This document shows positions 1 to 16,899 of a DNA stretch of 17,560 nucleotides, piece by piece. Position 1 is the stretch's first letter. Every line of letters begins with the position of its first letter. Source of the DNA: an uncultured archaeon (GTDB lineage: Archaea > Asgardarchaeota > Thorarchaeia > Thorarchaeales > Thorarchaeaceae); contig CAZVZC010000040.1 of assembly GCA_964631415.1 (NCBI GenBank), positions 1-17,560 on the forward strand, in the 5' to 3' direction. A program made the translations under genes and the position numbers. The notes under the pieces were generated by a model that saw only the letters and a program-made list of their open reading frames with translations, did no database searches and was not told where the DNA came from.

Positions 1-311
1 AACTCTCTTGTCTTAGACAGGAAATCAACGGTTTCATGCGCCAGAAGGTCTTCCAAGATGCGCTTCTGTTTCTGAATAGTAACTAATATCTTGTCCAACT
101 TCCTCTGACTCGCTTTCTCCCCCTTATCCTCCAATACGAACTCAACAATGTCACGATTGAAGACGTCAATGATATGAACGAGTATCTCACGAATAGACCT
201 CGTCTTCTCAGAGCACTTATAGTCGACCCTCTTTTCGTCCAGCCGCTGGACTGCGTCCTCAAGTGTGTCAAAGACTTCTCCCCAGTAGGGAAACATAGTC
301 TTCAGTTCCAT
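1..311 (-). CDS. DinB/YfiT-like family protein (partial, runs off window start)
   Basis: Manually translated and absent from the ORF track: MELKTMFPYWGEVFDTLEDAVQRLDEKRVDYKCSEKTRSIREILVHIIDV... with no stop to base 1. RSIREILVHI matches the first-His helix of the DinB fold. An alternative ATG lies at 323. Confidence 0.7.
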   Translation of the reverse strand, partial: MELKTMFPYWGEVFDTLEDAVQRLDEKRVDYKCSEKTRSIREILVHIIDVFNRDIVEFVLEDKGEKASQRKLDKILVTIQKQKRILEDLLAHETVDFLSKTRE

Positions 312-403
312 ATCATCGCACATTGCTATGACCAATCTGTTTACATCATGTTCGCTCAAGAATGAATCGCTCGCTCTAGACGGCCATCAAGGGGAAGAAC
401 AGA

Positions 404-1219
404 TTGCCTGAACTACCAGACATCTACGTTCTAGCAGGAAGCATGGACAAGGCTTTGAGGAACAGAATGATTGAGGATGCCACAATCAATCAGCCCAAGT
501 GCCTCAATGTCAGTCCACGAAGGTTCGTGAATCAGGTGAAGGGCCGCCGATTCGAGCGTTGTCGACAGCGTGGCAAGTGGGTACTGTCAGATCTGGACTC
601 GAACTGGACGCTAGCGTTCAATCTGGGAATGGGTGGAGAGATCCGACTACATGATCAAGACGAAACGCCCGAAGCAAGAAGAGAGAGAGTAGTCCTCCGA
701 CTTGACAATGGACAACAGGTGTGGATTCATCACTGGTGGTTTGGCCATGTGCATCTCGTGCCGAAAGAGCACATCAGCTCTCATCCTCAAATAGGACGTC
801 TAGGTCCGGAACCGCTAGCCGATGACTTCACACCAGACGCTCTCCATCACATGCTTGAGCGAAAACATGGATGGATCAAGAAGTATCTGCTCGACCAGAG
901 CTTCATCGCAGGGATAGGGAACGTCTACGTTCAAGACATGCTCTGGTACGCACGATTACATCCGAAGAGAAGAGCAGACTCTCTGACACAGAAGGAAGTC
1001 GAAGGTCTTCACCGAGCAATCCAAGATGTCCTGAACGCGGGCATCAGATACGGAGGCGGACTTGGGGAGCAGGATATCTGGGGCAACAATGGGCGATATC
1101 ATGAACACTTTAGAGTTGGCTATAGGACCGGCAAAGCATGCCCTAGGTGCAGAACCCTAGTGGAGGAATTGCGCGTCGGTTCGACAACCAGCTATATCTG
1201 TCCAAAGTGCCAAGTCTAG
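404..1219 (+). CDS. mutM: Fpg/Nei family DNA glycosylase/AP lyase
   Basis: N-terminal PELP, RGKW lysine, H2TH motif LLDQSFIAGIGNVY, C-terminal zinc finger CPRC...CPKCQ. TTG start after a purine-rich SD. Confidence 0.92.
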   Translation: MPELPDIYVLAGSMDKALRNRMIEDATINQPKCLNVSPRRFVNQVKGRRFERCRQRGKWVLSDLDSNWTLAFNLGMGGEIRLHDQDETPEARRERVVLRLDNGQQVWIHHWWFGHVHLVPKEHISSHPQIGRLGPEPLADDFTPDALHHMLERKHGWIKKYLLDQSFIAGIGNVYVQDMLWYARLHPKRRADSLTQKEVEGLHRAIQDVLNAGIRYGGGLGEQDIWGNNGRYHEHFRVGYRTGKACPRCRTLVEELRVGSTTSYICPKCQV

Positions 1220-1313
1220 CACCCACACTCAGACTTCTCCCTGTTGTTCGGCAGACAAATACTGATTTGACAATGCAGATTTATGCCGGTGTAAGCGATG
1301 AATCCGGAAGGTG

Positions 1314-1718
1314 ATGGTCTTCGTGTTGATCAAACGCCTACGAGAGTGCTCCGAGATCACTGCCATAGATGACACTCGTCTGCGCGAGCTTCTAAATCCA
1401 TTACGCGACAAGGGCGACTTGAAGCTGGGGTACAGTCTTGCCCACGCTACCGTCAAGCCGAAGAGAACCACACTGCCGCACAGAATCAAGGCATCGTCTG
1501 AAGTGTACTACATGCTGAAGGGCAGTGGCCTCATGCACATCGGTGACGAAACTGCGGAAGTTGGTGCGGGCGATGCAGTATACATCTCTCCGGGCTCAGT
1601 CCAATACATAGAGAACACCGGAAAGGATGATCTGGCTTTCCTATGCATAGTCTACCCGAGCTGGCGGGCAGAGGACGAGGAAGTGGTGCAGGTCACCGCA
1701 AAACAGTACCAAAGGTGA
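1314..1718 (+). CDS. Cupin domain protein (Cupin_2)
   Basis: SLAHATVKP...PH...EVYYMLKGSGLMHIG...VGAGDAVYISPG...IENTG cupin motifs. The start could be 1311, 1314, 1323 or 1326. Confidence 0.88.
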   Translation: MVFVLIKRLRECSEITAIDDTRLRELLNPLRDKGDLKLGYSLAHATVKPKRTTLPHRIKASSEVYYMLKGSGLMHIGDETAEVGAGDAVYISPGSVQYIENTGKDDLAFLCIVYPSWRAEDEEVVQVTAKQYQR

Positions 1719-1812
1719 ATGGAGTCATACACTCTCCGGTACAGGCGGCGTCTGTGTTGGTCGTTCGAGAGCATCACCAATGAAGACGCTCTCAGACGAT
1801 GCAGAAAAGTGG

Positions 1813-3003
1813 CTACTTCACTTTCTTCGCGAACTCTCTGCCCCACTCGTAAGCCTTGTCCAGTTCCTCTTTCGTAGGCACCCACTTGACGGTGAACGGT
1901 TCCATGATCACCTGCATCTTGCCCCGTTCCATGGCCTCTTGGATTTTCTTGACCGCTCCGCCGCCCCAACCATAGGAACCGAATGCCGCGCACTTCTTGC
2001 CCTCGGGTTTCAACATTTCTAGATCGGACAGTGTAGGAGCAACAGTGGGCAGAATCTCATTGTGAAGAGTGGAGCTACCCACTAGGATACCCTTTGCTTC
2101 GAGCAGCTCGGCCATTGTATCGCTACGGTCACTATGTGGGATTAGCCGGAGTAGAGGTGTCAGGCCTTCATCCTTGACTCCTTCAGCTATGGCTCTCGCC
2201 AACTTCGTCGTGCTTTGCCACATGGTGTCCCATGTGATCACGACCTTGTTTGACGTCCGTTCACCCTTTGCCCACTGAAGGTATCTGGTCACGATCTGGA
2301 GTGGGTCTTTTCGCCAGATGAGACCGTGTGACGGTGCTATGATCTTGATGGGAAGCTTGAGCTCCAGCACTTCCTCAATCTTTCTCTGGACCTGTCTGCT
2401 CAGGGGCCACAGAATATTCGCATAGTACTTCTCAGCCTCCTTCCAGAGCACATACTGGTCCACTTCGTCCGCATAGCGCTCCTCTGAGGCGTAGTGCTGG
2501 CCAAACGCATCATTGGGCAACAGCAACTGCTCTTCAACGTAATAAGTGAACATGCTCTCCGGCCAATGAAGCATCGGAGCCTCATAGAACCTCAGAGTCT
2601 TACCCCCGAGGTTGATCTCGTCCCCAGTCTTCACAGTCTGGATCTTCCACCCGTCCTTGTAGTGCTTCTTCAGGGCGTCAATCGCTCTTGCAGTACACAC
2701 AAGGGTAGCGTTTGGCACTCTCTTCAGCACCTCTGGAACGGCACCCGAGTGATCCGTTTCTGTATGGTTAGAGATCATGTAGTCAATCTTCTGAAGGTCG
2801 ACTATCCTTGATATTCTGTCAAACATCTCTTCGGCAAATGGTCCGTAAACCGCATCTACAAGTGCAATCTTCTTGCCCACCACCAAATAGGCGTTGTAGG
2901 TGGTCCCATGGTGCACTGTGTAGCTGTAGCCGTGGAAGTTCCGTATGTCATGGTCTATTGCTCCGACCCAATAGACTCCCTTCATTATCTCGAAAGGCTT
3001 CAT
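1813..3003 (-). CDS. fprA: Flavodiiron protein (FprA family, A-type flavoprotein; O2/NO reductase)
   Basis: GTTYNAY, diiron ligands HTETDHSG, LHWPE, NDAFGQH, PSHG. C-terminal flavodoxin domain TMWQST...AFGSYGWGGGA. Confidence 0.95.
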   Translation of the reverse strand: MKPFEIMKGVYWVGAIDHDIRNFHGYSYTVHHGTTYNAYLVVGKKIALVDAVYGPFAEEMFDRISRIVDLQKIDYMISNHTETDHSGAVPEVLKRVPNATLVCTARAIDALKKHYKDGWKIQTVKTGDEINLGGKTLRFYEAPMLHWPESMFTYYVEEQLLLPNDAFGQHYASEERYADEVDQYVLWKEAEKYYANILWPLSRQVQRKIEEVLELKLPIKIIAPSHGLIWRKDPLQIVTRYLQWAKGERTSNKVVITWDTMWQSTTKLARAIAEGVKDEGLTPLLRLIPHSDRSDTMAELLEAKGILVGSSTLHNEILPTVAPTLSDLEMLKPEGKKCAAFGSYGWGGGAVKKIQEAMERGKMQVIMEPFTVKWVPTKEELDKAYEWGREFAKKVK

Positions 3004-3111
3004 CCTAGGATTCCTCAGGTGAGGCTATGCTCGCTCCAAAATAAACCAGACAGTTCAGGCAGAAAATCACGGGGCTGCTAGCAACTATCTTTGAGTGATG
3101 ATGTCCGGGAA

Positions 3112-3936
3112 TCAGTCTGTGAACTTCACGACTCGAACAAGCCACTCTTCTACGAGAGCGTCGAACAAACTGCTCTGTTCAATCTGCAGATTGTGTCCCG
3201 CTAGATCTAGGACTGCAAACGATCCTCGGGGGTAGCTCCCGAGTATGCTCCATGCATCCTGATACCCCACTATGGAGTCCTGCCGCCCGACGATAATCAG
3301 CGTCGGCGCATCGAACGTTCCCACGGCCTTATCAACATCGAAGGAGAAACCATAGGCTTCTGCCCTTATCTCATCCACAAACGACTTGTTTGCGCATCTC
3401 AGCCCGAGAAGTATCTCTTTCTGGAACCGTTCCCAGAACCACGGATCTTGAACAACAGCAATCGACCCAAACTCGCTTGCATCTTCTGATTTCAGCCTAG
3501 ACATCAGGGTTGGGTCATTGACGAGTGTCATATGGAGCGGCACAATGCGTTTCTGGGAGTCAGCGACAACCAGAGGACATATGAGAAGTAGTCCGTCAAT
3601 CAGATCACGTTTGCGGGAAACTACTCCTCTAGCAAGGTATGCGCCATAGGACTGGCCAGCTAGTGCAAGTCGTTGTCCCGGGATAACCGCATCAATGAAC
3701 TCGAGAACGACTTCTAGCATCTGGTCCGAGCTAGAAATCCAGTCCACAGCTTGCGACTTTCCCATCCCTGGTAAATCAAAGTATATCCGTTTCCAAATTC
3801 CACCGTATCCGGCCGCAGGTTCCATGCAGCCTATCATCACGCGACGGTCGAGAGGGAAGCCATGTATGCTGATGAGAGGTCTTCCCTTGCCGTGTACCTC
3901 ATAGTCAATCGTGACATTCTCAAGCCTGCACTGCAT
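3112..3936 (-). CDS. Alpha/beta fold hydrolase
   Basis: HGF oxyanion motif, DLPGMGKS, GQSYG nucleophile elbow, GRQD acid, AGH His. Likely start is ATG 3936 (MQCRLENV); the upstream part of the 377-aa ORF looks non-coding. Confidence 0.9.
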   Translation of the reverse strand: MQCRLENVTIDYEVHGKGRPLISIHGFPLDRRVMIGCMEPAAGYGGIWKRIYFDLPGMGKSQAVDWISSSDQMLEVVLEFIDAVIPGQRLALAGQSYGAYLARGVVSRKRDLIDGLLLICPLVVADSQKRIVPLHMTLVNDPTLMSRLKSEDASEFGSIAVVQDPWFWERFQKEILLGLRCANKSFVDEIRAEAYGFSFDVDKAVGTFDAPTLIIVGRQDSIVGYQDAWSILGSYPRGSFAVLDLAGHNLQIEQSSLFDALVEEWLVRVVKFTD

Positions 3937-4168
3937 CCTTGTCGCCCCATTCGTCTTCAGAAATTGCGTGAACAGTAGCATGCGCCTACTGGTCGTTTCA
4001 AATGTGACTGTAGAGCATATTAGGTACATGGGTTGCCAAGACACATAGCTGCTACCTAATGATCGAACTCGCCGGACCTGTCCAGTTGTTGATGAGTGCC
4101 AAGTGTTCGCTGAACAAAAGAAGCAAAAGACATCATAGCTTCTATGTTTCACTGGAAGGAGAAAAGAG

Positions 4169-4756
4169 TTGGTCAACAGGGGAATACAGGCAACCGTCTT
4201 GGTAGTAGTAGTTGTTTCAGCTACATTCGTAGGGCTCGTATACACTGGCTGGATTCATCCGCCCGGCTGGGACGGAGGGTCACAGATAGCATCGATTGAA
4301 ATATGCGGTAACTCCTCGGACATATTGTACCCAGAACTCATGGATGCCACCTTTTCTCCAGATTCCACTGGTGGGTGGCTAGTCGCAGTGTCTTTTGTCG
4401 ACGACTCTCTTGGCCCTTATAATCTGACAGTCTATGATAGGAGTTTCACGACCACTACTGTCGAAGTGGAGAACATCAACAAAGCCTTGCATGATGGATT
4501 GGGGCTGACCCACACTTCAAACGACTCGATTGCCGACATCTTGCCAAGTATCGCATTTTACATACTCATCACATACAAGGACGGGACATGGATCTACACG
4601 CTCAAGGTTCTGAACGAGAAAGGGCACATCATTCTACTCAGCGGCACAGGAACACCGAATCTGAATCTGCTTGATGGCGATCTGCTTGAGCCCGGGACCG
4701 CGCTTGACGGTATGGTTTCAGCAATCAATGAGGCATTTGTCAATCACTTGGGCTAG
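4169..4756 (+). CDS. Hypothetical membrane-anchored/secreted protein
   Basis: N-terminal hydrophobic helix (ATVLVVVVVSATFVGLVY), then an acidic Ser/Thr-rich domain with several N-x-S/T sequons. GGAAGGAG SD before a TTG start. Confidence 0.75.
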   Translation: MVNRGIQATVLVVVVVSATFVGLVYTGWIHPPGWDGGSQIASIEICGNSSDILYPELMDATFSPDSTGGWLVAVSFVDDSLGPYNLTVYDRSFTTTTVEVENINKALHDGLGLTHTSNDSIADILPSIAFYILITYKDGTWIYTLKVLNEKGHIILLSGTGTPNLNLLDGDLLEPGTALDGMVSAINEAFVNHLG

Positions 4757-4784
4757 CTAGGTCATACATGCTCAGTGTAATGCC

Positions 4785-5132
4785 CTATACAGAATGACTG
4801 ATCTTACAGTCCTCAAAGATGTCTCCGAACGCACGATAGAAGTAGCGACATGCCTCCGTGAGACCCTGCTTGCCCGTTTCCGTCAGAGTGTAGACAACCT
4901 GCTTTCCATCCGAGATTCCGTCAATCAACTTGCGGACGGCCAAGTCCCTGAGCGCGGGGTAAATGGTACCGGGGGTCGGTCGGCTTCCACGGCGTTCGGC
5001 AATCTGTCTTGCGAGTTCCTGACCGTTCATGGGCTTCTTGCTCAGCTCCCATAGAATCTGAAATGAGAGCATACCGCGCATGTCACAACAGGATGGCGGA
5101 CAGCACCCCTCCGAATCCTGAATGCGTGACAT
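4785..5132 (-). CDS. PadR family transcriptional regulator with N-terminal Cys cluster
   Basis: RGMLSFQILWELSKKPMNGQEL...PGTIYPALRDL...YTLTETG is a PadR winged-helix signature. The N-terminus carries CCPPSCC. Confidence 0.92.
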   Translation of the reverse strand: MSRIQDSEGCCPPSCCDMRGMLSFQILWELSKKPMNGQELARQIAERRGSRPTPGTIYPALRDLAVRKLIDGISDGKQVVYTLTETGKQGLTEACRYFYRAFGDIFEDCKISHSV

Positions 5133-5138
5133 AAGTCA

Positions 5139-5154
5139 TATTGGATGACCAATA
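5139..5154. promoter_or_regulatory. Palindromic operator 1 (TATTGG-atga-CCAATA)
   Basis: Perfect 6-4-6 inverted repeat between the TATA element and the padR ATG. Confidence 0.7.
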
Positions 5155-5155
5155 C

Positions 5156-5164
5156 ATTTATATC
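5156..5164. promoter_or_regulatory. TATA element, probably shared by divergent padR and arsM
   Basis: ATTTATATC reads TTTATA on + and ATATAAAT on -. It lies about 24 nt from the padR ATG (leaderless spacing). Confidence 0.65.
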
Positions 5165-5170
5165 TTGTTG

Positions 5171-5186
5171 TATCGGACACCCGATA
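5171..5186. promoter_or_regulatory. Palindromic operator 2 (TATCGG-acac-CCGATA)
   Basis: Perfect 6-4-6 inverted repeat with the same consensus as operator 1 and a compensatory T/A to C/G change. Confidence 0.7.
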
Positions 5187-5222
5187 GCATGATGTTGGGC
5201 ACCATGATGTGGTGATAGTGGA

Positions 5223-5969
5223 ATGAGAGCGAAAGGCGTGTCTGTCAAGAAACATGTGCAGGAGCACTACTCTGCTGTTGCAAAGAGGGCCGAAGCCCCC
5301 AGTTCGTGTTCGTGCTGTGGACCAGTGTCCAAGGAGCACTACGCTGAGATGATAGGTTATACGAAGACCCAGCTTGCCGCACTGCCTCAAGGCGCTATGG
5401 CAGCTAGTGCAGGATGTGGTAATCCAGCTGCTCTTGCTGGACTGAGGGAAGGAGAGGTGGTTCTCGACCTGGGATCCGGTGGCGGCATTGACGTATTTCT
5501 GGCCGCAAGAGCGGTGGGTCCCAACGGCAGAGCAATCGGTGTGGACATGACTCAAGACATGATCGACTTGGCCAAGAAAAGTGCAGAAGAAATGGGACTA
5601 GGCAACGTCGAGTTCAGACTTGGCGATATCGAGAGCCTTCCCTTGGAAGATGATACCGTCGACGTGATCATATCTAACTGCGTCATCAATCTCGCGCCCG
5701 ACAAGGACAAGGTGTTCAAGGAGGCCTACAGGGTCTTGAAGCCCGGTGGAAGGCTCATGGTTTCAGACATCGTCACAAAAGGAGAACTGCCCAAGGTCGT
5801 TAGAAACGACCCAGACGCGTGGGCTGGATGCGTGGCAGGTGCTCTTGACGAGAAGGTATACCTGAGTAAGGTCCGTGCCGCGGGGTTTCATGATGTCAAG
5901 GTTGTTTCTAAGAGGCCGTTCATGGAACTCGTGTACAGTGCGGAGATAGAGGCACACAAGTCTGCCTAG
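5223..5969 (+). CDS. arsM: Arsenite S-adenosylmethionine methyltransferase
   Basis: GCGNP, SAM motif [17 protein letters not shown] and WAGCVAGAL carry the conserved ArsM cysteines. N-terminal CSCCG. Confidence 0.95.
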
Positions 5970-5993
5970 GGCACGAGAAGGAGGAGGACTAGG

Positions 5994-6122
5994 GTGAGGT
6001 CAAAGCAAGATAAATCCAATCGAGAGAGTCAGTTGTACGACCGTGAGGAACTCAGACGGCAAGACAGCACTGAGAAAGGCTGTGGTCGCACATCATGCTG
6101 CATGGAATCAAGCAGTATCTGA
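5994..6122 (+). CDS. Putative 42-aa small protein with C-x4-CC motif
   Basis: GTG start preceded by a strong SD (AAGGAGGAGG). Sequence MRSKQDKSNRESQLYDREELRRQDSTEKGCGRTSCCMESSSI. Below the ORF-track size cutoff. Confidence 0.5.
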   Translation: MRSKQDKSNRESQLYDREELRRQDSTEKGCGRTSCCMESSSI

Positions 6123-6135
6123 GTTGTCTAAGCTG

Positions 6136-6168
6136 CTTTCTCTCCTATTCGGGGGCATGCTCCCCGGA
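6136..6168 (+). terminator. Possible terminator of the arsM transcript
   Basis: Pyrimidine tract CTTTCTCTCCTATT followed by a GC hairpin TTCGGGGGC-AT-GCTCCCCGGA. Confidence 0.3.
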
Positions 6169-6359
6169 CCACATCACGTCAGGGCGGACAGAATGACTGA
6201 CGGATTCCTGACTTGAAACGAGTCAGAAACGGTGTGCATGTGCTGGTCTGAAGCCGGGCATTGCTTCATCGTCGCCACAGCGACTACGGAGCACAAGTGA
6301 AAGATTATATGCCGCATCGGACCTCGCCGACTCGCGCCCGTCGGGATGGTTGACCTCCG

Positions 6360-6770
6360 ATGCCTCCAAAAGACATGAACCTCATTGTACTCGGATGCAT
6401 GCAATGCATGTACAATGCCGCTGACCTAGCAGGAACGATGAAGATACAGTATGATGTGAGTGCTAGGATCATCCGAATGCCATGCACTGCGCGTCTAGAC
6501 ATCAACTTCATTCTGAAAGCGCTGCAGGAGGGTGCAGACGGTGTGTTGGTCGTAGGCTGTCATCCGGGCGACTGTGCCTATAAGACGGGAAACCTAGGTG
6601 CAGAGAGGCGAGTCCGCTTTGCTAGAAAACTGATTGGCCAGCTGGGCCTGAACGAGGGTCGCGTGAAGATGGTGTTCGTGAGTGCCGCGGAGGGCGACAA
6701 GTTCGCGGCCGAGATCAACCGGTTTGCAGACGAGGTCAGGAAGATAGGGCCAAACCCGGTGCGCCTGTAG
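6360..6770 (+). CDS. mvhD: Methyl-viologen-reducing hydrogenase delta subunit ([2Fe-2S] protein MvhD/FlpD)
   Basis: CMQCMYNAADLAG, IIRMPCTAR, GADGVLVVGCHPGDCAY, VSAAEG, GPNP. TTATAT at 6305-6310 upstream. Confidence 0.95.
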   Translation: MPPKDMNLIVLGCMQCMYNAADLAGTMKIQYDVSARIIRMPCTARLDINFILKALQEGADGVLVVGCHPGDCAYKTGNLGAERRVRFARKLIGQLGLNEGRVKMVFVSAAEGDKFAAEINRFADEVRKIGPNPVRL

Positions 6771-6786
6771 GGGAAAAGGGAAGTAC

Positions 6787-8118
6787 GTGGCTGAAGAGCA
6801 CGAGCATGAGAAGACTGGTTGGCTTCTCAGGGAAGATCCAGTCATAATCAGCTTGTTCACAGCTATCTTCACACTGGGGCTGATGAGTGGTCTTCTTCGC
6901 TTCCTGTTTCCTTTCCAGATACTGGACTTGGGGGGTTCTGAGGCACTCATCTCTTGGGGCAGCGCCTTCTCCTCGATGGGACAGATTGTCGGCCTACTAG
7001 TTGTCAGCAGACTAGTACGCGAAAGAAGGAACACTCTTCTTGTCGCTGGCGGACTACTGTCATTGTTTGCACTGATTGTTGGCGTTACTCCTGATAGTAC
7101 CGTTCTAGCAGTGGCACGCATCACCGAGGGTATGGGGTCTGGTCTTCTCATCATTCTAATCATCCGTGTATCGACAGAGTTCGGGCCCTCCCGTGGTGAG
7201 AGTGTTGGGACTCTCCTAACAGCAATGTTTCTCGGGTCTGCGATTGGTCAGGGACTCGCAGGGTGGGCTGTAGAATATCTTGTCCTCCTCTTGGTGGCAA
7301 GCCAAGCTCAGGTGATTATGCTAGTCGGGGCGGCGATGTGCGTTCTCTCAGCCGCTGTTCTTGTCATCACGGTGGCAAGAGGAGTTCAAGGAGTGATGGA
7401 GCGTCCGACACTCCCAACCCATACACCCGGTCACACGCATCTCGGCATTCTTATCGAGATTGTGTCATCAAGACGAGTCTTGCTCCTTGCCTGTGTCTAT
7501 CTGATTTATGATTTCTCACATGGTATCTACACGCCGGGTCTCTCAATACTGTTTGAAGGAAATGGAATTCCAATGGAGCAGATCGGACTCGGGTATCTAG
7601 TCGGCGACATTGTGTGGGGTATTGTGCAGGTGTACGCAGGTCGGTATGTTGACCGTGTCGGGCACCTCGGCCCTCTGCTCATGAGTCTGATTGTGAAGGG
7701 CGCTATAGTCATGCTGTACCCGGGCGCATCATCTTTCCCGCTGCTAACGTCCCTTCTCATAGTCGCAGGTGTTTCCGAGGGCTTCCTTGAACCCTCAAGA
7801 AACGATGCCGCGATGAGCTTTGCTGGAACGACTGAGTTAGTCCATGATCACCCCCATCACTACTTGGCCCGTGCACAAGGGTTGTCCATTTCTCTGACAA
7901 GCCACAGGCACGAGCATGTTCATACTACGGGCTCCAGTGAAATCGTGTCCTTTCTGCAGACAATAGGCATCGCTGGATTTGCGATGGGTTCTACAGCAGG
8001 TGCTTGGCTACTCTCACAAGGTTTCTTCTTGACCGACTTGACCCCCATAGGAGGATTATTGCTGATCTGTGCAGGACTGCTGTCAGTCGGACTGCATCAA
8101 CGCAGCTCTACCTCCTAG
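6787..8118 (+). CDS. MFS transporter with histidine-rich loops
   Basis: About 12 hydrophobic segments, ARITEGMGSG and GRYVDRVG MFS motifs. His clusters at the N-terminus, the central loop and 7843-7923. Confidence 0.88.
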   Translation: MAEEHEHEKTGWLLREDPVIISLFTAIFTLGLMSGLLRFLFPFQILDLGGSEALISWGSAFSSMGQIVGLLVVSRLVRERRNTLLVAGGLLSLFALIVGVTPDSTVLAVARITEGMGSGLLIILIIRVSTEFGPSRGESVGTLLTAMFLGSAIGQGLAGWAVEYLVLLLVASQAQVIMLVGAAMCVLSAAVLVITVARGVQGVMERPTLPTHTPGHTHLGILIEIVSSRRVLLLACVYLIYDFSHGIYTPGLSILFEGNGIPMEQIGLGYLVGDIVWGIVQVYAGRYVDRVGHLGPLLMSLIVKGAIVMLYPGASSFPLLTSLLIVAGVSEGFLEPSRNDAAMSFAGTTELVHDHPHHYLARAQGLSISLTSHRHEHVHTTGSSEIVSFLQTIGIAGFAMGSTAGAWLLSQGFFLTDLTPIGGLLLICAGLLSVGLHQRSSTS

Positions 8119-8225
8119 TCATGTCTTGTTGGGTGCTGTTTCTAGCTCTCTAATCCTGTTGCCGGAGGAACATAAGCCATAGTTTAAATGGTCCGACAAT
8201 ATTCTTAACAATAGTAAACAAGAGG

Positions 8226-9227
8226 GTGTCGAAAACGATTATAGCCTCCTTGGTCGTGTCACTGCGCGAAGGCATAGAAATCGCCCTGATAGTTGCAGTG
8301 ATTCTGTCATACCTACGAAAGTCGGATCTCCAGAGTCTGAGTCGATACGTTGCTGTGGGGGTCATCCTAGCCACGTTGACAAGCATCGGGGTGGCCTTGG
8401 TGATGGCTGCTGTGTGGGGCGCATTCGAGGGGCCGGGTCTCTCAGTGTTTGAAGGAGTGGTTGTCCTTGCCGCTGCTGTCTTACTCACTTCAATGATACT
8501 CTGGATGTGGAAGTCAAGTGGCAAGATCACGTCTGAGATAGAAGCGTCGGCAGGGAGGCAGGCCGGCTTGCGTGGAGGCATTGGGTTGCTTCTCGTGAGC
8601 TTTGCACTCATACTTCGTGAGGGTGTTGAGCTTGTTCTCTTCTCAATGGCACTGGCAGTGGAGGATGCCTTCCAGACCTACATTGGGATTGCTGCAGGTC
8701 TGTTTCTGGCAACGATTGCAGGCTTCGGCATATATCGCGGGTCGTTTCACGTGAGTCTTCGTTCTTTCTTCAAATGGACGTCCGCCTTCCTCATCCTCTT
8801 TGCAGCCGGAATGGTGGCCTATGGGATACAAGAGCTGCAGGAGGGAGGGCTACTCCTGGTGGGTCCACTTGAGGTGTGGAACACCAACCCGCCCCTGCTT
8901 CCCGATGGCAGTTATCCTTTACTTCACGAAGATGGGCTAATCGGGAGTCTGGCAAAGTCTCTGTTTGGCTACGACGGAAACCCTTCGGCATTGGAGCTAC
9001 TCGGATATCTATCCTACATCGTCATAGTGTCCGTTTACTACTTGCTGAACAGGCCCAGCAGCGGCTCCAAGACGAGACCATCTGAAGGTCGCTTGCAGCA
9101 ACCTGTCATTTCGCAACAGATGCCGCCACAGATGAGTCCATATGTGCACCAACCGAAACGGCTTTCGGCTTTCTTCTCTGCATTCTATCAGAGGGGGAAC
9201 AAACATACATCATTTCACCTCAAATAG
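8226..9227 (+). CDS. FTR1/EfeU family iron permease
   Basis: Two RExxE motifs (REGIE, REGVE), about 7 TM helices, AAGMVAYGIQELQE and LFGY conserved segments. TTTAAAT at 8183 upstream. Confidence 0.93.
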   Translation: MSKTIIASLVVSLREGIEIALIVAVILSYLRKSDLQSLSRYVAVGVILATLTSIGVALVMAAVWGAFEGPGLSVFEGVVVLAAAVLLTSMILWMWKSSGKITSEIEASAGRQAGLRGGIGLLLVSFALILREGVELVLFSMALAVEDAFQTYIGIAAGLFLATIAGFGIYRGSFHVSLRSFFKWTSAFLILFAAGMVAYGIQELQEGGLLLVGPLEVWNTNPPLLPDGSYPLLHEDGLIGSLAKSLFGYDGNPSALELLGYLSYIVIVSVYYLLNRPSSGSKTRPSEGRLQQPVISQQMPPQMSPYVHQPKRLSAFFSAFYQRGNKHTSFHLK

Positions 9228-9242
9228 AGGGGCACGGAAATA

Positions 9243-10091
9243 GTGTCAAGATCTAAGAAACAGAATAATGGAGCGTTGAAGTTTCAAAAGCAAAAGATCA
9301 CTCTCAAAGACCGAATACATGTGCTGATTGCAGAGAGCAAAATCTGTGAGTTGGCATTTGACGAACTTGAGAATGACATCGAAGTCAAGACAATGCTTGA
9401 AGACTCCAACCGAATGGCGATTGACAGACTGAGCTTTTCCGATCACGGCCACACACACTCACTAGTTGTCACTATGAATGGGATTCAGCTTCTGCGCGCA
9501 CTGAGAGCAGGCGTACAACCCTCGATAGTACAGGAGGAAACCGGCACATTCGAGGACTCAGAGCTTGTTGTCTTGCTCGCCTGTTATCTGCACGACATAG
9601 GAATGAGCGTACACCGCGACAGACACAATGAGTTCTCTCTGATGCTAGCAACACCCATAGTCAACAGGATCTTGGAGAAGGTGTACCAGAACGACCGACA
9701 CAAGCAGGTCCATATCAGAGGACACGTTCTTCACGCAATCTTCTGCCATGACAAGATGATAACACCAAGTACCGTCGAAGCAGGCGTTGTGGGTGTGGCG
9801 GACGCACTTGACATGACAAAAGGCAGAGCACGTATTCCATTTGAGGCCGGGAGTGTCAATATCCACTCTGCGTCGGCCATGGCAATCAACAGCGTCGAAA
9901 TCAGGAAGGGCGAGAGCAAGACTGTGAGGATTGAGGTTTCCATGAGCAATGCCACAGGTATCTTCCAGATTCAAGAACTCCTCGAAAAGAAGATACGAAA
10001 CGCCATACAGATAGTCGACCACATAGAACTGTATGCTGTCATGTCCAAGACGGAGGATCGTATACTGGGGAAGGAACTCAGAGTGCTATGA
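9243..10091 (+). CDS. HD-superfamily metal-dependent phosphohydrolase (COG3294-like)
   Basis: DHGHTH, LHDIG, H...HD, ADALDM and IHSASA motifs. Confidence 0.88.
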   Translation: MSRSKKQNNGALKFQKQKITLKDRIHVLIAESKICELAFDELENDIEVKTMLEDSNRMAIDRLSFSDHGHTHSLVVTMNGIQLLRALRAGVQPSIVQEETGTFEDSELVVLLACYLHDIGMSVHRDRHNEFSLMLATPIVNRILEKVYQNDRHKQVHIRGHVLHAIFCHDKMITPSTVEAGVVGVADALDMTKGRARIPFEAGSVNIHSASAMAINSVEIRKGESKTVRIEVSMSNATGIFQIQELLEKKIRNAIQIVDHIELYAVMSKTEDRILGKELRVL

Positions 10092-10283
10092 AGCGTGGTC
10101 GAACACTCCTTCCCTGAAGGTGGCAGCCGCCAAGGTTAAGACCTAGAAGGCCATGCACTCGCACACTGGAGTACCAGCCAGAACCTAGCGACTTTCAAGC
10201 TGAAGACATGATGTCACTGTCTGTTGTAGGCTTGCATAGTCACTGATGAAATCAAGAAGACTGTGCGGATGGAGCCGGCCTGT

Positions 10284-10697
10284 ATGACCGAGGTCTTACA
10301 CTTATCAGTGGAAAACGTTGCCAAGCTTTACCGTCATGCTCAAGACTACTCACCCCTAGAATCTGCTGGTCTTCTCTTTGGCCATCTTGAGGGAAGCGTT
10401 GTCACAGTCACAAGAGTCGAACTCTTGAAGAACGCCCTGCGGTCGAGGATCAGGTTCGAGATAGACCCTATAGCCGAATATGAGCTGTTGTTGGATGCTG
10501 AAACACGCGGCGAAGAACTGGTTGGAATATTCCACTCCCACCCTGCACCACCCCAACCTTCAGAGGCAGACCTTCAGAACATGAGTCTAAACCCAGTCGT
10601 CTGGCTCATAGCATCGAGGACTACTGGAACTTGGATGAGTCGGGCCTTTGTGCTCAAAAGGAGAAAGCCAGTCGAGGTACCTGTCATCCTGTCCTGA
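10284..10697 (+). CDS. JAMM/MPN+ metalloprotease (M67 family)
   Basis: ESAGLLFG...GIFHSHPAPPQPSEAD fits E...H-S-H-x7-S-x2-D. Start uncertain (10263, 10269 or 10284). Confidence 0.92.
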   Translation: MTEVLHLSVENVAKLYRHAQDYSPLESAGLLFGHLEGSVVTVTRVELLKNALRSRIRFEIDPIAEYELLLDAETRGEELVGIFHSHPAPPQPSEADLQNMSLNPVVWLIASRTTGTWMSRAFVLKRRKPVEVPVILS

Positions 10698-10704
10698 GCA
10701 TGCC

Positions 10705-11016
10705 CTATCGTGTCAGTCCTTTCAGCGTGCCTGACGTCCGTTCTGGTTCGAATGATACTTGAGTGCCATCAATCGAAGACAGAAGCGCTGCCGATGCGAG
10801 CACCTTGTCCACTGACTCTGCATTGCACTGCAAGACACCCAAACCGCTCTCCTCATCATAATCATTTATGAAGAGTCTGGAGTCTGCCACGGAGGTTTCG
10901 CCGAAAAGCGACAGGAAGCTCTTCCAGATGGCACTTGACAGGCGCCGGGCGTCAATGAGTGGGCCGGTCCTGTGAAGGTGAAAGAGCACGTATCTTTTCC
11001 TTATCGTCTTGTGCAT
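10705..11016 (-). CDS. rnp2: Ribonuclease P protein component 2 (Pop5/Rpp14)
   Basis: RKRYVLF, LFG and TSGTLKG motifs. Lies directly after rpp30. Confidence 0.9.
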   Translation of the reverse strand: MHKTIRKRYVLFHLHRTGPLIDARRLSSAIWKSFLSLFGETSVADSRLFINDYDEESGLGVLQCNAESVDKVLASAALLSSIDGTQVSFEPERTSGTLKGLTR

Positions 11017-11017
11017 C

Positions 11018-11704
11018 CTATTCACCCTCCCTGACGATCTCGACTCCAGGCGACACGGACTCTATTCTCATCTTATGCTCTGAAGCAGCCACTATCTGGT
11101 CCGGGACTGAATAGGCCGCTTCTCTTGAATGTCGCCTGTCCATCCCGAGAAGGGTACCCACAAACCACATTGCAGACGGCGCTCTCATCAGAATTGGTTC
11201 TATGGCTCCACTGGAGAGGACAATGCGCATTCCTGCATGTGTGGCAGTCGTCACTGACTCTCTGTACACTCTGAGTATCTTGGATCTGTCCAATCCAGAC
11301 GATGTGAGGAGGGATGCAATGGGAATCTCTAGGGCAATCCCGGTCTCAGCTGCCAGACTTGCAGTGCTCTCCTTAACCACATGGTCCTTCGTTGGCTCGC
11401 TGAGTGTCAGCAGATCTATCCTCCGGTCTGCTGCAGCCCAGTTGGCGATCTCGGTGTCCCGAATGGGCACCGATACTATGGCTGACTGTTTCCTGACACG
11501 CCCGATTTGTTTCCTGAGCACATCCAGGCTCTTTCCCTCGAGGTCTATCCTCGTTAGGATGACTACTCCATTGTCAGTCCTAGTTATCGGGCTGCCAAGA
11601 GGCAGTGGTACGGCAAACCCTGTGAGGCCTATCTTGCAAGCCATGTCTACGAATGTGTCTAGCTTCTCCAAACTGGGAACCCTAGCATTCAAGTCCACGG
11701 GCAT
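11018..11704 (-). CDS. rnp3: Ribonuclease P protein component 3 (Rpp30)
   Basis: N-terminal DLN, ALEI, VLSSGA...MRAP motifs. Conserved gene context. Confidence 0.9.
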   Translation of the reverse strand: MPVDLNARVPSLEKLDTFVDMACKIGLTGFAVPLPLGSPITRTDNGVVILTRIDLEGKSLDVLRKQIGRVRKQSAIVSVPIRDTEIANWAAADRRIDLLTLSEPTKDHVVKESTASLAAETGIALEIPIASLLTSSGLDRSKILRVYRESVTTATHAGMRIVLSSGAIEPILMRAPSAMWFVGTLLGMDRRHSREAAYSVPDQIVAASEHKMRIESVSPGVEIVREGE

Positions 11705-11709
11705 CTGGT

Positions 11710-12168
11710 TCAGTCCCCTATTTCTTTCAGGAGGCCCTCAATGAGCGACGCGGCTGTTTCTTGAGCGCATCGTGGATACTGCTGGATATGTATCTGCACA
11801 CTTATCATATCCGGTCCTGTGGCTAGCTTCAGATGACCAAGGTAAGCAGCCTGTTTGTCAATCCTAACAAAGAACACACATCGTTCATCAATGCGCTGCA
11901 TGAGTGTCGAGGCCAGAGTCTTCCTATCGTCAGGCGAGAGCTCCGTCAGAAGATGGCGTACTGCTGTTTCACAAGGCAACTTAGAACGAAGAACTGCGGA
12001 GATTACGTCAATTGGGGGCCGGTTGTACCCCTCTGCCGTTTCAGTTTCGACTTTCACCCGACTACGCAGTTCCTCAGGGAACACATTGAGGACCGCAGTT
12101 TTTACTCTCTCCACAATCTCTGTTGGACGAGAGTGGCCGCGGGCCTCAAACCTAGCAAAGTATGACAT
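11710..12168 (-). CDS. Archaeal RNA-binding protein (DUF54/COG1325)
   Basis: PTEIVERVKTAV, AEGYNRPPI and FFVRIDKQAAYLG motifs. Lies between rpl15e and rpp30. Confidence 0.88.
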   Translation of the reverse strand: MSYFARFEARGHSRPTEIVERVKTAVLNVFPEELRSRVKVETETAEGYNRPPIDVISAVLRSKLPCETAVRHLLTELSPDDRKTLASTLMQRIDERCVFFVRIDKQAAYLGHLKLATGPDMISVQIHIQQYPRCAQETAASLIEGLLKEIGD

Positions 12169-12197
12169 TTCAGACGACCCAGAGGTGTTGTCACAGG

Positions 12198-12779
12198 CTA
12201 CTTTCCAAGGTTACGGTTCGCCCGGAGGGAAGGTCTCATCTTCTCAGCTCCGCGACCCCTGTTCCTCAGGCCTCTGCTTCTCTTGCCAGCAGAAGAGAGT
12301 CCTCGACTCACACGACCCTTCTGTACGGGATCGCAGATCCAGTTGATCTCCGGATCATTATAGATTACTGGATGGCTGGGGTCTACCAGGATACACTCAT
12401 ACCAGACCCATTTGTTGTCGTTACCCACCCAATAGGAGTTCAAGAGGCGCAGGTTAGGGAACTTCTTCGCTGCTCGCTCTTCAGCAATCCAGCGACGTGA
12501 CTTCTGGGGTGTGTATCTGACAACACCCAAGCTCCTTGGCTTCCGTCCTGCCTTTGGTCGTATCTTCTCGCGGGGACCTCGGCCGGTCCTGATTCTTACG
12601 ATCACATATCCCTGCTTGGCCTTGTAGCCGAGCTCGCGTGCTCGTCCAAGCCTAGTCGGACGCTCCAGCCTTATGATGGTTTCCTGCTTTCTCCAGCCTA
12701 TCAGTCTGCTTCGGATGATCTCAGTACGCCCTGTCTGCTCTTCCATCCACGTTTCTTGCATGTGCTTGTAAGCTGACAT
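12198..12779 (-). CDS. rpl15e: 50S ribosomal protein L15e
   Basis: ERPTRLGRARELGYKAKQG, AEERAAKKFPNL, NSYWVG, ILVDPSHP, RGLSSAG. Confidence 0.98.
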   Translation of the reverse strand: MSAYKHMQETWMEEQTGRTEIIRSRLIGWRKQETIIRLERPTRLGRARELGYKAKQGYVIVRIRTGRGPREKIRPKAGRKPRSLGVVRYTPQKSRRWIAEERAAKKFPNLRLLNSYWVGNDNKWVWYECILVDPSHPVIYNDPEINWICDPVQKGRVSRGLSSAGKRSRGLRNRGRGAEKMRPSLRANRNLGK

Positions 12780-12810
12780 CTATCTACTTCCTTTGCAGTG
12801 AATCAAATCG

Positions 12811-12871
12811 CTTTGTTTGTGGTTCAGCCCGGAGGGCCACATCCCGTGCGGACGCATCCGCCAACACAAAG
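12811..12871 (-). ncRNA. Structured rpl15e 5' leader (eL15 ribosomal-protein-leader-like)
   Basis: The minus strand folds as a 3-way junction: closing stem CUUUGU-G-UUG/CAA-ACAAAG, hairpin GCGGA-UGCG-UCCGC, then GGGAU-GUGGCCC-UCC-GGGC-UGAA-CCAC, about 30 nt before the ATG. Confidence 0.65.
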
Positions 12872-12936
12872 GAATGGTTGTGGTCGAGGATACGTGGTCA
12901 ACCCACTGACTCGACCACAGCCCGTTCTGGGAGCTT

Positions 12937-12944
12937 TACTTAAA
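12937..12944 (-). promoter_or_regulatory. TATA box for the rpl15e operon
   Basis: TTTAAGTA on the minus strand upstream of the leader. Confidence 0.5.
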
Positions 12945-12987
12945 GATGTAACGATTGGGCTCCCAGACACAGCCATACTGTATGGTC

Positions 12988-13905
12988 CTACTTTCCAGTG
13001 AGTTCCTTGATGACCTTGTCAACGGTCAGTTCTCCAATCCTCACTTGGGCCTCAAGTGTGGATGAAGCAATATGCGGGCATGCCACTACCTTCGGATGCT
13101 TGACGAGCTTCCAGTCTTTGGGTGGCTCGTCGACGTAGACGTCCAGACCTGCGCCTGCGATTGCTCCGGCGTCAAGGGCCTTCAGCAGAGCTGCCTCGTC
13201 CACAATCCCACCTCGTGAAGTGTTGATTATGTAGGCGGTCTTCTTCATACGAGCCAGCTCCTTCTCACCAATCATGCCCTTTGTTTCAGGGACCAAAGGA
13301 ACATGCAGAGTCATGAAGTCCGACTTCTCTATTACGTCCTTGAGTTCGGAACGCTTTATGCCAAGGTCCTTGCAGGCCTTGCTGATGTCAATCACATCAT
13401 AGGCCAGCACATCCATATCGAAGGCCTTCGCTCTCTTTGCTACTTCTGCTCCGATTCTGCCCAAGCCAACGATGCCCAGGGTCTTCTTGTACAGCTCTGT
13501 GCCCTCCAGTTTCTTCTTCTCCCACTTCTCCTCTTTCATCGTGCGGTCTGCCAGCGGGAGGAACCTGATCAAGGAGAGCATGAGTCCGAAGACCAGCTCG
13601 GCCACAGATACAGAGGGGCCTTCAGGAGTGTTCAACACCTTAATGCCTTTGGCCTTCGCGGCCTCAGCGTCCACATTGTCAAGACCTACCCCTGCTCTGA
13701 CTATCAGTTTCAGCTTGTCTGCAGCAGCGATGACCTCCTTGGTCACCTTTGTTGCACTTCTGACTACTATGCATTCAAAGCCCTTGATCTGCTTCTCCAA
13801 GGGCCCATCAGTTTCTGTCTTTCTGACTACAATCGTCAGTCCTGCTTTTTCCAGCCTCTTCTGGGCGGACTCGGATATGGGATCTGCAATCAGCACACGT
13901 GCCAT
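12988..13905 (-). CDS. serA: D-3-phosphoglycerate dehydrogenase / D-2-hydroxyacid dehydrogenase (short form, no ACT domain)
   Basis: VVRSATKV, RAGVGLDNVD, GLGRIG, NTSRGGIVDE, DVYVDEPP, PHIASST. Confidence 0.9.
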   Translation of the reverse strand: MARVLIADPISESAQKRLEKAGLTIVVRKTETDGPLEKQIKGFECIVVRSATKVTKEVIAAADKLKLIVRAGVGLDNVDAEAAKAKGIKVLNTPEGPSVSVAELVFGLMLSLIRFLPLADRTMKEEKWEKKKLEGTELYKKTLGIVGLGRIGAEVAKRAKAFDMDVLAYDVIDISKACKDLGIKRSELKDVIEKSDFMTLHVPLVPETKGMIGEKELARMKKTAYIINTSRGGIVDEAALLKALDAGAIAGAGLDVYVDEPPKDWKLVKHPKVVACPHIASSTLEAQVRIGELTVDKVIKELTGK

Positions 13906-14006
13906 GGTTCTTACCCTCCGATTTGGGTGTGCGCAGACCGAGCTTGCTCCGTCTTAAGCTTGGCGACCAAAGAGTTTCTTAGGGTCCGGCCTCTGCTCTA
14001 GACCCC

Positions 14007-14591
14007 ATGAAGCGGCAACTGGAGCCTTCGAACTCTCTTGTACCCTGCCCAGCTGTTCTCGTGAGCGTCAGGGGAACTGACCGACCCAACATAATCACTC
14101 TAGCTTGGGCGGCCAATGTATGTAGTGAACCCCCCACTGTCGTCGTGGGCATTCGACCAAGACGTTACAGTCACGGGCTCGTGAAAGAGGCCGGTGACTT
14201 TGTTGTCAACATTCCGTCTGTGGACCTGATCGAGGCAACCAAGATGTGTGGCGCGAAGTCAGGTAGGGACACGGACAAGTTTGCGGTCTGCCACTTGACT
14301 GCAGAGCCCTCGGCCAAGGTCACTTCTCCGATGATCAAGGAGTGCCCTATCAACATTGAATGCAAGACAAAGCAAGTCATCACTCTAGGAAGTCATGACC
14401 TCTTCATCGCCGAAGTTGTGGCTGTCCACATCGATGAGTCTGTGCTTGACGAGAAAGGCAACTTCGACGCAGCCAAGGCGAAGTTGTTCACCTTTCTTCC
14501 ATTGACCGGAGATTACTGGGCACTCGGAAAGCCGGTTCGCGAATCACCCCCTGCACGTTCAGCGGCCACCAAGAGGCGTGGTCGTGGATAG
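14007..14591 (+). CDS. Flavin reductase-like (flavoredoxin family) FMN-binding protein
   Basis: PCPAVLVS, NIITLAW, FVVNIP, CGAKSGRDTDKF, ECPINIEC, GSHDLFIAEVV. Confidence 0.92.
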   Translation: MKRQLEPSNSLVPCPAVLVSVRGTDRPNIITLAWAANVCSEPPTVVVGIRPRRYSHGLVKEAGDFVVNIPSVDLIEATKMCGAKSGRDTDKFAVCHLTAEPSAKVTSPMIKECPINIECKTKQVITLGSHDLFIAEVVAVHIDESVLDEKGNFDAAKAKLFTFLPLTGDYWALGKPVRESPPARSAATKRRGRG

Positions 14592-14668
14592 GTCTTGGAT
14601 TGCGAATGTCATCTTGGCACGGTCAAGTCCGAAACCTGTAAGCCCCGACGGCCATAGAGTGAGAGCGC

Positions 14669-15886: not shown

Positions 15887-16230
15887 GAGAATCATCTCTC
15901 ACATTATAGGACTGCCACATCACTGGCGAGAGATAAACTTCTCCAATGGTAGCTCATAGGAGGCGAAGTCCTCACTCATCTGACTGCATACTCCTGCATG
16001 TGATACTCTCCGTGACGCCCCCACACACCACTTTCATCCTGATGTCCGTTTGTTAAGTCTGGCGACAGTGCGTTTGCCTGTGCGTCTCTCAGTCTGTGGT
16101 CGACAGGCGACACACACTCCGGTGCCCCCTCGCATGTGACGAAAGGGAGCCTCCACGGACCACCTAGAGATAGTGTCAGATACGACTGCGACTTATATGT
16201 GAAGAACGCGGAGGTTCGTTTGTGGAGCAA

Positions 16231-16659
16231 ATGGCTATCCAATCGGGTGTGTCCCATAGCATGGAATTGGTCAGTGACTACATACTTGTAAGAAAACCCG
16301 CATTGCCTCGATGGTGGGACCCCGTATCTAGACCCCATGTAGCCGTCATTATTGAGGACCCTGCCTCTGGCCGCGTCCAGAAGTACTACCTGTCGCAAGG
16401 CGGTCAACCAGCACCAGACGGCCGCACGCCTCTTGAGGTCAACGACATAGACGGGCTCCCAGACGGCACATTGCTTGAGGTCAGGTTCAATGCGACGAAG
16501 GCCAACCTGTTCAGACTTGAGATGATGGACTGCGTACCGTGTTGGAGATGGGTCGGCCGCTGCAGAGGGCTGCCGGGTTTTGATTCTGATGGGATCGACT
16601 GGACACATCTCATGGACGGCATCGAGCTCTATCACCTCAATGGTTTTGTCGCGAACTAG
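16231..16659 (+). CDS. Hypothetical protein
   Basis: 142-aa ORF with natural composition, TTATAT at 16193-16198 upstream and a CVPC-x6-C motif. No family recognised. Confidence 0.6.
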   Translation: MAIQSGVSHSMELVSDYILVRKPALPRWWDPVSRPHVAVIIEDPASGRVQKYYLSQGGQPAPDGRTPLEVNDIDGLPDGTLLEVRFNATKANLFRLEMMDCVPCWRWVGRCRGLPGFDSDGIDWTHLMDGIELYHLNGFVAN

Positions 16660-16899
16660 AGGCTATCTGACAAGGACCGGTTTCACACTTGCTATCCTTG
16701 TTGTTATCGTCATCCTCAGAAGAGGCTTTTCAGGGCCAACCATTGTGCCATGTACCTGTTCATAATGCTCTTGGTTTCAAAGAACAGCATTGATGCTGGA
16801 ATCTCCTTGCTTTGAAAGGGGCCTTATTATACAGGCTGAGTTGGTGTCACACTCGGCCGGCTAGGAAACCAGTCGCATAAGCACAGGGAGTGAGAAGAG

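Follow-up and report, generated by a model that had tools for sequence, protein, structure and literature searches.

Introduction

ArsR/SmtB proteins, such as those of R773, A. ferrooxidans (ArsR) and C. glutamicum (ArsR1), are small, dimeric, autoregulated winged-helix repressors. Their operator at the ars promoter is a palindrome, and their site is made up of three cysteines, two of which are often adjacent. Binding of trivalent arsenic [As(III)] to the cysteines releases these repressors (bioRxiv 10.1101/2021.08.12.456183). We identified a locus with similarities to these systems in a 17,560-nucleotide (nt) stretch of DNA from an uncultured archaeon of the Thorarchaeaceae (Asgardarchaeota; GenBank assembly GCA_964631415.1, contig CAZVZC010000040.1, positions 1 to 17,560; the whole stretch is referred to as the window). 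In this locus a gene for a putative PadR-type repressor (padR) is located head-to-head with arsM, the gene for an As(III) S-adenosylmethionine methyltransferase, and the PadR protein carries two vicinal cysteine pairs in an N-terminal tail. Judged from sequence comparisons, the locus is probably a non-ArsR arsenic switch, and the same holds for its counterparts in about 100 other archaea from sediments.

The predicted repressor would share the general traits of ArsR/SmtB proteins listed above. Unlike them, it matches the PadR family and not HTH_5, its proposed site, a CC-x3-CC tail, precedes helix alpha-1, its host is an archaeon with a promoter of the TATA/transcription factor B (TFB) type, and its predicted target is arsM alone and not an efflux operon. 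It would therefore be ArsR-like in action without being a member of ArsR/SmtB. MarR_ars shows that a winged-helix family other than ArsR can acquire a vicinal cysteine pair and a third cysteine. AdMarR_ars of Achromobacter deleyi As-55, with the cysteines C36, C37, and C157, is a repressor released by As(III) or trivalent antimony [Sb(III)], and electrophoretic mobility shift assays, reporter assays and cysteine mutants established that it represses both its own gene and an ars gene next to it (bioRxiv 10.1101/2021.08.12.456183). MarR_ars differs from the window protein in its MarR fold, in its bacterial host, in its target arsV (encoding a flavin monooxygenase) and in having cysteines far apart in the sequence; moreover, MarR_ars has been characterised by experiment. 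The nearest known sequence pattern to the CC-x3-CC tail is formed by the vicinal pairs of ArsD. ArsD of R773 has an As(III) site consisting of Cys12-Cys13-Cys18 and two proposed metalloid-sensing pairs, Cys112-113 and Cys119-120 (PMC4562236). It differs from the window protein by its thioredoxin-like fold, its main role as a chaperone for ArsA, the absence of homology to PadR and the spacing of its pairs (x5 versus x3). Vicinal pairs with a further cysteine three to five residues away, as in ArsD, are established As(III) sites, and the cysteine motif of the PadR protein resembles these sites and that of MarR_ars.

Fold and size are what the window protein has in common with the short PadRs TA0346, H. 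salinarum RosR, M. tuberculosis Rv3488 and L. lactis LmrR. None of the matched PadR structures aligns over the N-terminal cysteine tail (alignments start at profile positions of about 12-21), and we know of no matched short PadR structure that controls ars genes. A first-pass annotation of this DNA mentions a bacterial metalloid-responsive PadR, which could not be confirmed in the literature. No published description of a PadR-arsM module was found in the literature on PadR and arsenic regulation or on Asgard arsM. Asgard arsM genes have been published, and a regulator was not mentioned (PMC10060404).

Results

A PadR Protein With an N-terminal Cysteine Cluster Is Encoded Head-to-Head With arsM

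The features of the locus are given in Table 1. The first-pass annotation had described a PadR protein with two vicinal cysteine pairs before its DNA-binding domain, encoded head-to-head with arsM, with one TATA element and two matching palindromes in the gap and without an ArsR gene. All of this was confirmed: the pairs are C10-C11 and C15-C16, the gap between the two genes is 90 nt (5133-5222), and it contains TTTATAT and the two palindromic boxes. There is no HTH_5 (ArsR-type) gene on the padR-arsM contig, the 12 HTH_5 matches of the genome (2.16 Mb, 85% complete) being on other contigs.

Table 1. Features of the padR-arsM locus and of the small open reading frame (ORF) next to it (positions in the window)
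Feature	Position	Strand	Remarks
padR-type gene for a putative repressor	4785..5132	-	115 amino acids; Pfam PadR match; N-terminal CCPPSCC tail
Codons C10-C11-P12-P13-S14-C15-C16	5085..5105	-	proposed thiolate sensing site
Putative operator box 1, TATTGGATGACCAATA	5139..5154	.	perfect 6-4-6 palindrome; 6 nt upstream of padR ATG
TATA element TTTATAT, predicted shared bidirectional archaeal core promoter	5157..5163	.	read from sequence
Putative operator box 2, TATCGGACACCCGATA	5171..5186	.	perfect palindrome; 36 nt upstream of arsM ATG
arsM, As(III) S-adenosylmethionine methyltransferase	5223..5969	+	248 amino acids; Shine-Dalgarno-like GGTGAT at 5211-5216
42-amino acid cysteine-containing ORF	5994..6122	+	GTG start; ends GCGRTSCCMESSSI; preceded by Shine-Dalgarno-like AAGGAGGAGG

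Residues 26-92 of the padR product match the PadR family (PF03551) with an E-value of 2.7e-11 and 43.8 bits against a cut-off of 27. PadR was the sole family matched in the Pfam scan of this protein; neither an HTH_5 nor a MarR profile was found. Its N-terminus reads MSRIQDSEGCCPPSCCDMRG, and the CCPPSCC sequence directly precedes D17-M18-R19-G20 and helix alpha-1. In the AlphaFold2 (AF2) model, which has a mean predicted local distance difference test (pLDDT) score of 83.6, helices span residues 18-30, 37-48, 54-66, and 85-112 and strands span residues 70-75 and 78-83, giving an alpha1-alpha2-alpha3 and beta wing fold followed by a single long C-terminal helix. Residues 1-16 are disordered in the model, with pLDDT values below 50 at residues 1-10 and 14-16. 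The top Foldseek matches of the model are all short PadRs (TA0346, RosR, Rv3488, and LmrR, probability 1.00), and drug complexes of LmrR are among the structural matches. According to the model, the window protein is a short PadR of the subfamily-2 type.

The public gene call for the padR locus (P0002) is only 95 amino acids long, starts at M21 and cuts off the cysteine cluster. Because homologues conserve the N-terminal part, the longer start (115 amino acids, at 5132) is judged to be the real one. Misplaced starts are also found in other database proteins of this PadR family (P0003, P0056, and P0102 among them): automatic calls often start at an internal methionine (M18 or M21) and thereby conceal the cysteine motif, and others are over-extended and read '..IGHPI..' before the true start, which is the operator palindrome in translation.

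The arsM product scores 326.9 bits against the cut-off of 263 of NCBIfam NF008823 ('arsenite methyltransferase'). It aligns to the solved ArsM structures 5evj and 4fr0 with the motifs GCGNP, SNCVINL, and C-AGAL in register, and C65, C153, and C203 fall on these three motifs. We take these residues to be the equivalents of the As(III)-binding C72, C174, and C224 of CmArsM. Among 57 PadR-linked ArsM proteins, C65 is present in 56 and both C153 and C203 in all 57, and the residues of the N-terminal C31/C32 pair are found in 53 and 52, respectively. By these sequence criteria the PadR-linked gene encodes a canonical ArsM, which is a predicted As(III) methyltransferase. A single in-frame TGA was seen in several ArsM matches from archaeal genomes (G343:C40, G325:C38, G290:C137, G275:C101, G203:C4, and G096:C25). 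NCBIfam holds models of selenoprotein ArsM, and some of these proteins may contain selenocysteine.

padR and arsM Occur Together in Two Archaeal Phyla

A homologue search of 5.8 billion proteins yielded 1082 PadR relatives, which, where named, are annotated as PadR of Thor-, Hod- and Hermodarchaeota. For the analysis of gene context, the best 80 of 209 stretches encoding a PadR relative were used as genomic loci. These loci were found via the PadR protein alone and derive from Thor-, Hermod- and Hodarchaeota, Bathyarchaeia and one Methanomethylicota. An intact arsM gene lies divergently upstream of padR in 77 of the 80 loci, a remnant of arsM is present in one and no arsM in two. The first-pass annotation had suggested a check for linkage of the PadR homologues to arsM, acr3, or arsC; linkage to arsM was borne out in two phyla, and no link to acr3 or arsC was seen.

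The same picture emerged from samples of whole genomes. ArsM above the cut-off was found in 103 of 201 Asgard genomes and PadR in 57, and in about 52 of these 57 PadR carriers arsM is adjacent on the opposite strand. All nine genomes without PadR in the window's own family (f1) also lack ArsM above the cut-off, as does the sole genome without PadR in family f12. Among 151 Bathyarchaeia genomes, 73 have ArsM and 24 a strong PadR match, only strong matches being counted; 22 of the 24 adjoin arsM, one is on a separate contig and one at a contig edge. The padR-arsM pairing is therefore near-obligate in two archaeal phyla, and its recurrence in both, together with the co-absence of the two genes within families, supports padR-arsM as a functional unit. 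The regulatory link between the two genes is strongly supported. The pairwise identities of PadR and ArsM are correlated (r = 0.76; Mantel test, 0 of 999), which fits co-inheritance and carries little weight, as any vertically inherited gene pair would show the same.

The Cysteine Cluster Is Conserved in PadR Proteins Linked to arsM

Conservation of the CCxxxCC motif had been proposed as a check on the first-pass annotation, and the motif is conserved. The sequence CCPPxCCDMRG is present in nearly all of the best 120 of the 1082 PadR relatives. In an alignment of 31 sequences with 54-93% identity to the window protein (A1), nine residues (C11, P12, P13, C15, C16, D17, M18, R19, and G20) do not vary, and C10 is conserved in at least 90%. 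All 80 loci encode CC[P/A]PxCC or a close variant with a longer spacer between the pairs or with serine or threonine in place of the first cysteine. An invariant CCPPxCCDMRG in a protein that otherwise varies down to 54% identity suggests that this segment is the sensor.

In the wider PadR family, as seen in an exhaustive profile search, the motif is graded from CCPPxCC over xCPPECC, CCDMRG, and CDMRG to sequences without cysteines. In the 99% complete genome G037, a close PadR relative (L126:3045-3848) reads ..NPDCCDMRG, so that the first cysteine pair is gone; there are no operator boxes near this PadR and the genome is without ArsM above the cut-off. It appears that the first cysteine pair, the boxes and arsM disappeared jointly, which fits a linked function. 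Among more distant relatives, a four-cysteine CCPPPECC form (P0124) and a two-cysteine form (P0122) occur with arsM. Other distant relatives have other neighbours: a one-cysteine form adjoins a gene for a Rieske protein, a CCDMKG form a gene for a DedA/VTT membrane protein and a CCRPPECC form a gene for a thioredoxin-domain protein, each with similar TATYGG-N4-CCRATA boxes (loci L095, L133, and L136/L137). These contexts are a hint, as they were seen on one or two contigs per variant and most contigs are too short.

Putative Palindromic Operator Boxes Flank the TATA Element in the Spacer

Both boxes in the padR-arsM spacer are 16-bp TATYGG-N4-CCRATA sequences, one on each side of the single TATA element. 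The strict sequence TATYGGN4CCRATA occurs twice in the whole genome of 2,157,830 bases, both times in this spacer, against 0.45 occurrences expected from base composition. No further operator targets were found in this genome, a looser 14-nt core occurring 9 times versus 8 expected, which is chance level. Across 81 related spacers, 179 boxes were counted within one mismatch of TATYGG-N4-CCRATA (one box in 10 loci, two in 44 and three in 27), and the central four bases of the boxes are R-Y-R-Y. Outside the spacers only five stray boxes were present in 775 kb of flanking DNA, besides 33 boxes in 11 Hermod- and Hodarchaeal loci described below. A box is located at -49 or -50 from the first cysteine codon in 60 of the 81 loci, and this fixed distance fits autoregulation. 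The closest relative (L013) has the same TTTATAT element, and in many Thorarchaeota loci a palindromic TTTAAA-type element lies between boxes that are 30 bp apart.

The TATA element is centred at ~5160, at a distance of 13.5 bp from the midpoint of box 1 and of 18.5 bp from the midpoint of box 2. In archaea, the TATA element is usually ~25 nt from the transcription start. The start of padR would lie at ~5133-5137, giving a near-leaderless transcript with box 1 between the TATA element and the start, and that of arsM at ~5183-5187, inside box 2. Such a geometry would be typical of archaeal repressors that block recruitment of the polymerase. A direct repeat (CATGATGT, at 5188-5195 and 5203-5210) is present in the putative arsM 5' leader and is not kept in L013.

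The 33 boxes outside the spacers belong to a second cluster of three boxes directly after padR (loci L020, L022, L025-L029, L038, L042, L043, and L058), with a spacing of 24 and 21 nt; a nitroreductase-family gene follows 150-200 nt downstream of the cluster (for example, boxes at L025:6410-6470 and the gene at L025:6625-7242). From this box cluster we conclude that the predicted regulon reaches beyond arsM in these Hermod- and Hodarchaeal lineages. In family f21 (genomes G053 and G061), the PadR protein has the form CCPEKPDCC (L128:3025-3420 and L129) and two boxes lie between its gene and a nitroreductase gene. The arsM gene of this family is on another contig (L130:1764-2929), directly behind a gene for a 99-amino acid AbrB/MazE-like protein, which may be an alternative regulator of arsM.

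A Model for Metalloid-Responsive Repression and Its Alternatives

We propose that PadR is an autoregulated repressor which is released when As(III), perhaps also Sb(III) or trivalent methylarsenic [MAs(III)], binds to the thiolate tail, and we put the probability of this reading at roughly 65%. In the model, PadR would act as a dimer, the form presumed from other short PadRs, and would contact both TATYGG-N4-CCRATA palindromes around the shared TATA element. Each box would lie between the TATA element and one of the two predicted transcription starts, and box 1 would also overlap the presumed TFB contact position of the arsM promoter. From these positions, bound PadR should silence both arsM and its own gene. 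The C10-C11-P-P-x-C15-C16 tail, which lies right next to helix alpha-1 of the DNA-binding domain and has no order in the model of the apo form, would bind a metalloid entering the cell through three or four of its thiolates. The metalloid-bound tail would then become ordered and shift alpha-1 and the dimer geometry, upon which PadR would leave the DNA and arsM would be transcribed. Within this model, As(III) would be the most likely ligand of the tail, and we infer repression, the transcription starts, the dimeric state and, foremost, which ligand is bound.

Several observations weigh against this reading. Many of the genomes are related and cannot be treated as independent samples; the counts given above overstate how many separate events lie behind them. 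A complete Bathyarchaeota chromosome (G202, locus L032) encodes a four-cysteine PadR and has no arsM anywhere, locus L077 keeps a four-cysteine PadR without an adjacent arsM, and in family f21 PadR faces a nitroreductase gene with arsM elsewhere. Nitroreductase-family genes follow a three-box cluster in the 11 loci mentioned above, and a flavin-reductase-like (Flavin_Reduct) gene is located after arsM in 15 loci. In addition, AF2 gives no structure for the cysteine tail and the binding of a ligand is purely inferred. General electrophile or redox regulons typically include flavoproteins of the nitroreductase and flavin-reductase types, whose genes under the same operator leave room for a broader reading, in which PadR is a general thiol-stress sensor. 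In that case the cysteine pairs would be a redox or electrophile switch, acting by disulfide formation or S-alkylation, and arsM would be one member of a broad detoxification regulon. The persistence of PadR in G202 and L077 and the presence of the archaeal PadR-like RosR, presumably an oxidative-stress response regulator, among the closest structural matches point in the same direction. We nevertheless consider a general thiol-stress sensor unlikely, since arsM is the only universal partner (~95% of loci) and is gained and lost together with PadR, and since the operator is present nowhere else in the window's own genome. True ars operons, too, regularly encode flavoproteins, for example ArsH, ArsV, ArsO, and ArsT (bioRxiv 10.1101/2021.08.12.456183). 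As(III) is itself thiol-reactive, so that the thiol-stress and metalloid readings overlap.

The tail also resembles a metallothionein, with the clustered CC motifs typically seen in thiolate clusters for Cu(I) and Cd(II). Binding of an iron-sulfur cluster or of another soft metal [Cu(I), Cd(II), Zn(II), or Hg(II)], in which case arsenic would not be the natural signal, would agree with the distant relatives that have fewer cysteines and share the operator next to Rieske, thioredoxin-domain or DedA/VTT genes. The short PadR Rv3488 is reportedly linked to cadmium, which could not be confirmed in the literature. Against a soft metal or an iron-sulfur cluster, genes for metal-efflux ATPases or copper chaperones and mer genes do not appear repeatedly next to padR in the 80 loci, and the known substrates of the universal partner enzyme are As(III) and related metalloids, which makes such a ligand very improbable. 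Slightly less probable still is a cysteine tail that is structural or irrelevant, with PadR repressing arsM in response to an organic ligand in the usual pocket or without being inducible. Classical PadR and LmrR do bind organic ligands, the LmrR drug complexes are among the structural matches of the model and the tail is left unmodelled by AF2. Yet seven consecutive invariant residues in a disordered tail, in two phyla and down to 54% identity, argue for a direct function, as does G037, the close relative that is without the first cysteine pair and also without boxes and arsM. A metalloid-released repressor of arsM and of its own gene remains the reading that we prefer.

Neighbouring Genes and Other ars Genes

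The first-pass annotation had also pointed to a small cysteine-containing ORF after arsM. This ORF exists and has a strong Shine-Dalgarno-like sequence ahead of it, but it is not part of the conserved module. It is present only in the closest relative L013 and deleted in L014-L016. Synonymous to non-synonymous codon changes versus L013 are 4:13 for this ORF, compared to 49:12 for arsM, 23:9 for padR and 32:0 for the mvhD-like gene, and it was rejected as a module part for its distribution and the absence of purifying selection. Further downstream are a MvhD/VhuD-like iron-sulfur gene (6360-6770), a gene for a major facilitator superfamily (MFS) transporter (6787-8118) and one for an EfeU/Ftr1-type iron permease (8226-9227). 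The MvhD-like gene stands alone and is preceded by a conserved promoter-like element, AAAG(A/G)TTA(T/A)ATG. This trio, or parts of it, is syntenic in the three to four closest relatives only, and the mvhD-like, MFS, EfeU, and FprA neighbours were rejected as part of the unit for that reason. A gene for the TATA-binding protein (TBP) is located just downstream of padR in 19 Thorarchaeota loci (e.g., L069:6499-7104); its position probably reflects synteny within the lineage, and the TBP gene was not seen to be preceded by boxes.

Neither Acr3 nor a glutaredoxin (Grx)-type ArsC was found in the window's own genome, which is 85% complete. A gene for an ArsB-family pump (PF02040, 274 bits) is located at G000:C7:13094-14368 (L138:2571-3932), unlinked to arsM. 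No ORF examined beside this gene matched a regulator family and no strict PadR box is present at it, the only strict boxes of the genome being those in the padR-arsM spacer. An ArsA-type match is on contig C16 of the same genome.

Discussion

A cysteine-based winged-helix repressor released by metalloids is a known functional kind, and what is new in the proposed switch is its scaffold, its site and its archaeal promoter. We regard it as an even chance that this PadR family is the third independently evolved arsenic-sensing family after ArsR/SmtB and MarR_ars and the main switch of the Thor-, Hermod- and Hodarchaeal lineages and of many Bathyarchaeia, that its four-thiolate tail is unlike known As(III) sites and that the nitroreductase- and flavin-reductase-type proteins are new arsenic-transforming or arsenic-protective enzymes. 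Arsenic methylation by uncultured sediment archaea (Asgard and Bathyarchaeia) is thought to be relevant to arsenic cycling (PMC10060404). The module described here provides a concrete candidate sensor-operator pair for its regulation, consisting of a 115-amino acid protein and a 16-bp site. The pair may be a compact part for arsenic biosensors, and the operator could help to locate more arsenic-related genes in the genomes of unculturable organisms. If the proposed reading is true, the PadR family would represent another independent origin of cysteine-based metalloid sensing on a different winged-helix scaffold, and as such a case of convergent evolution.

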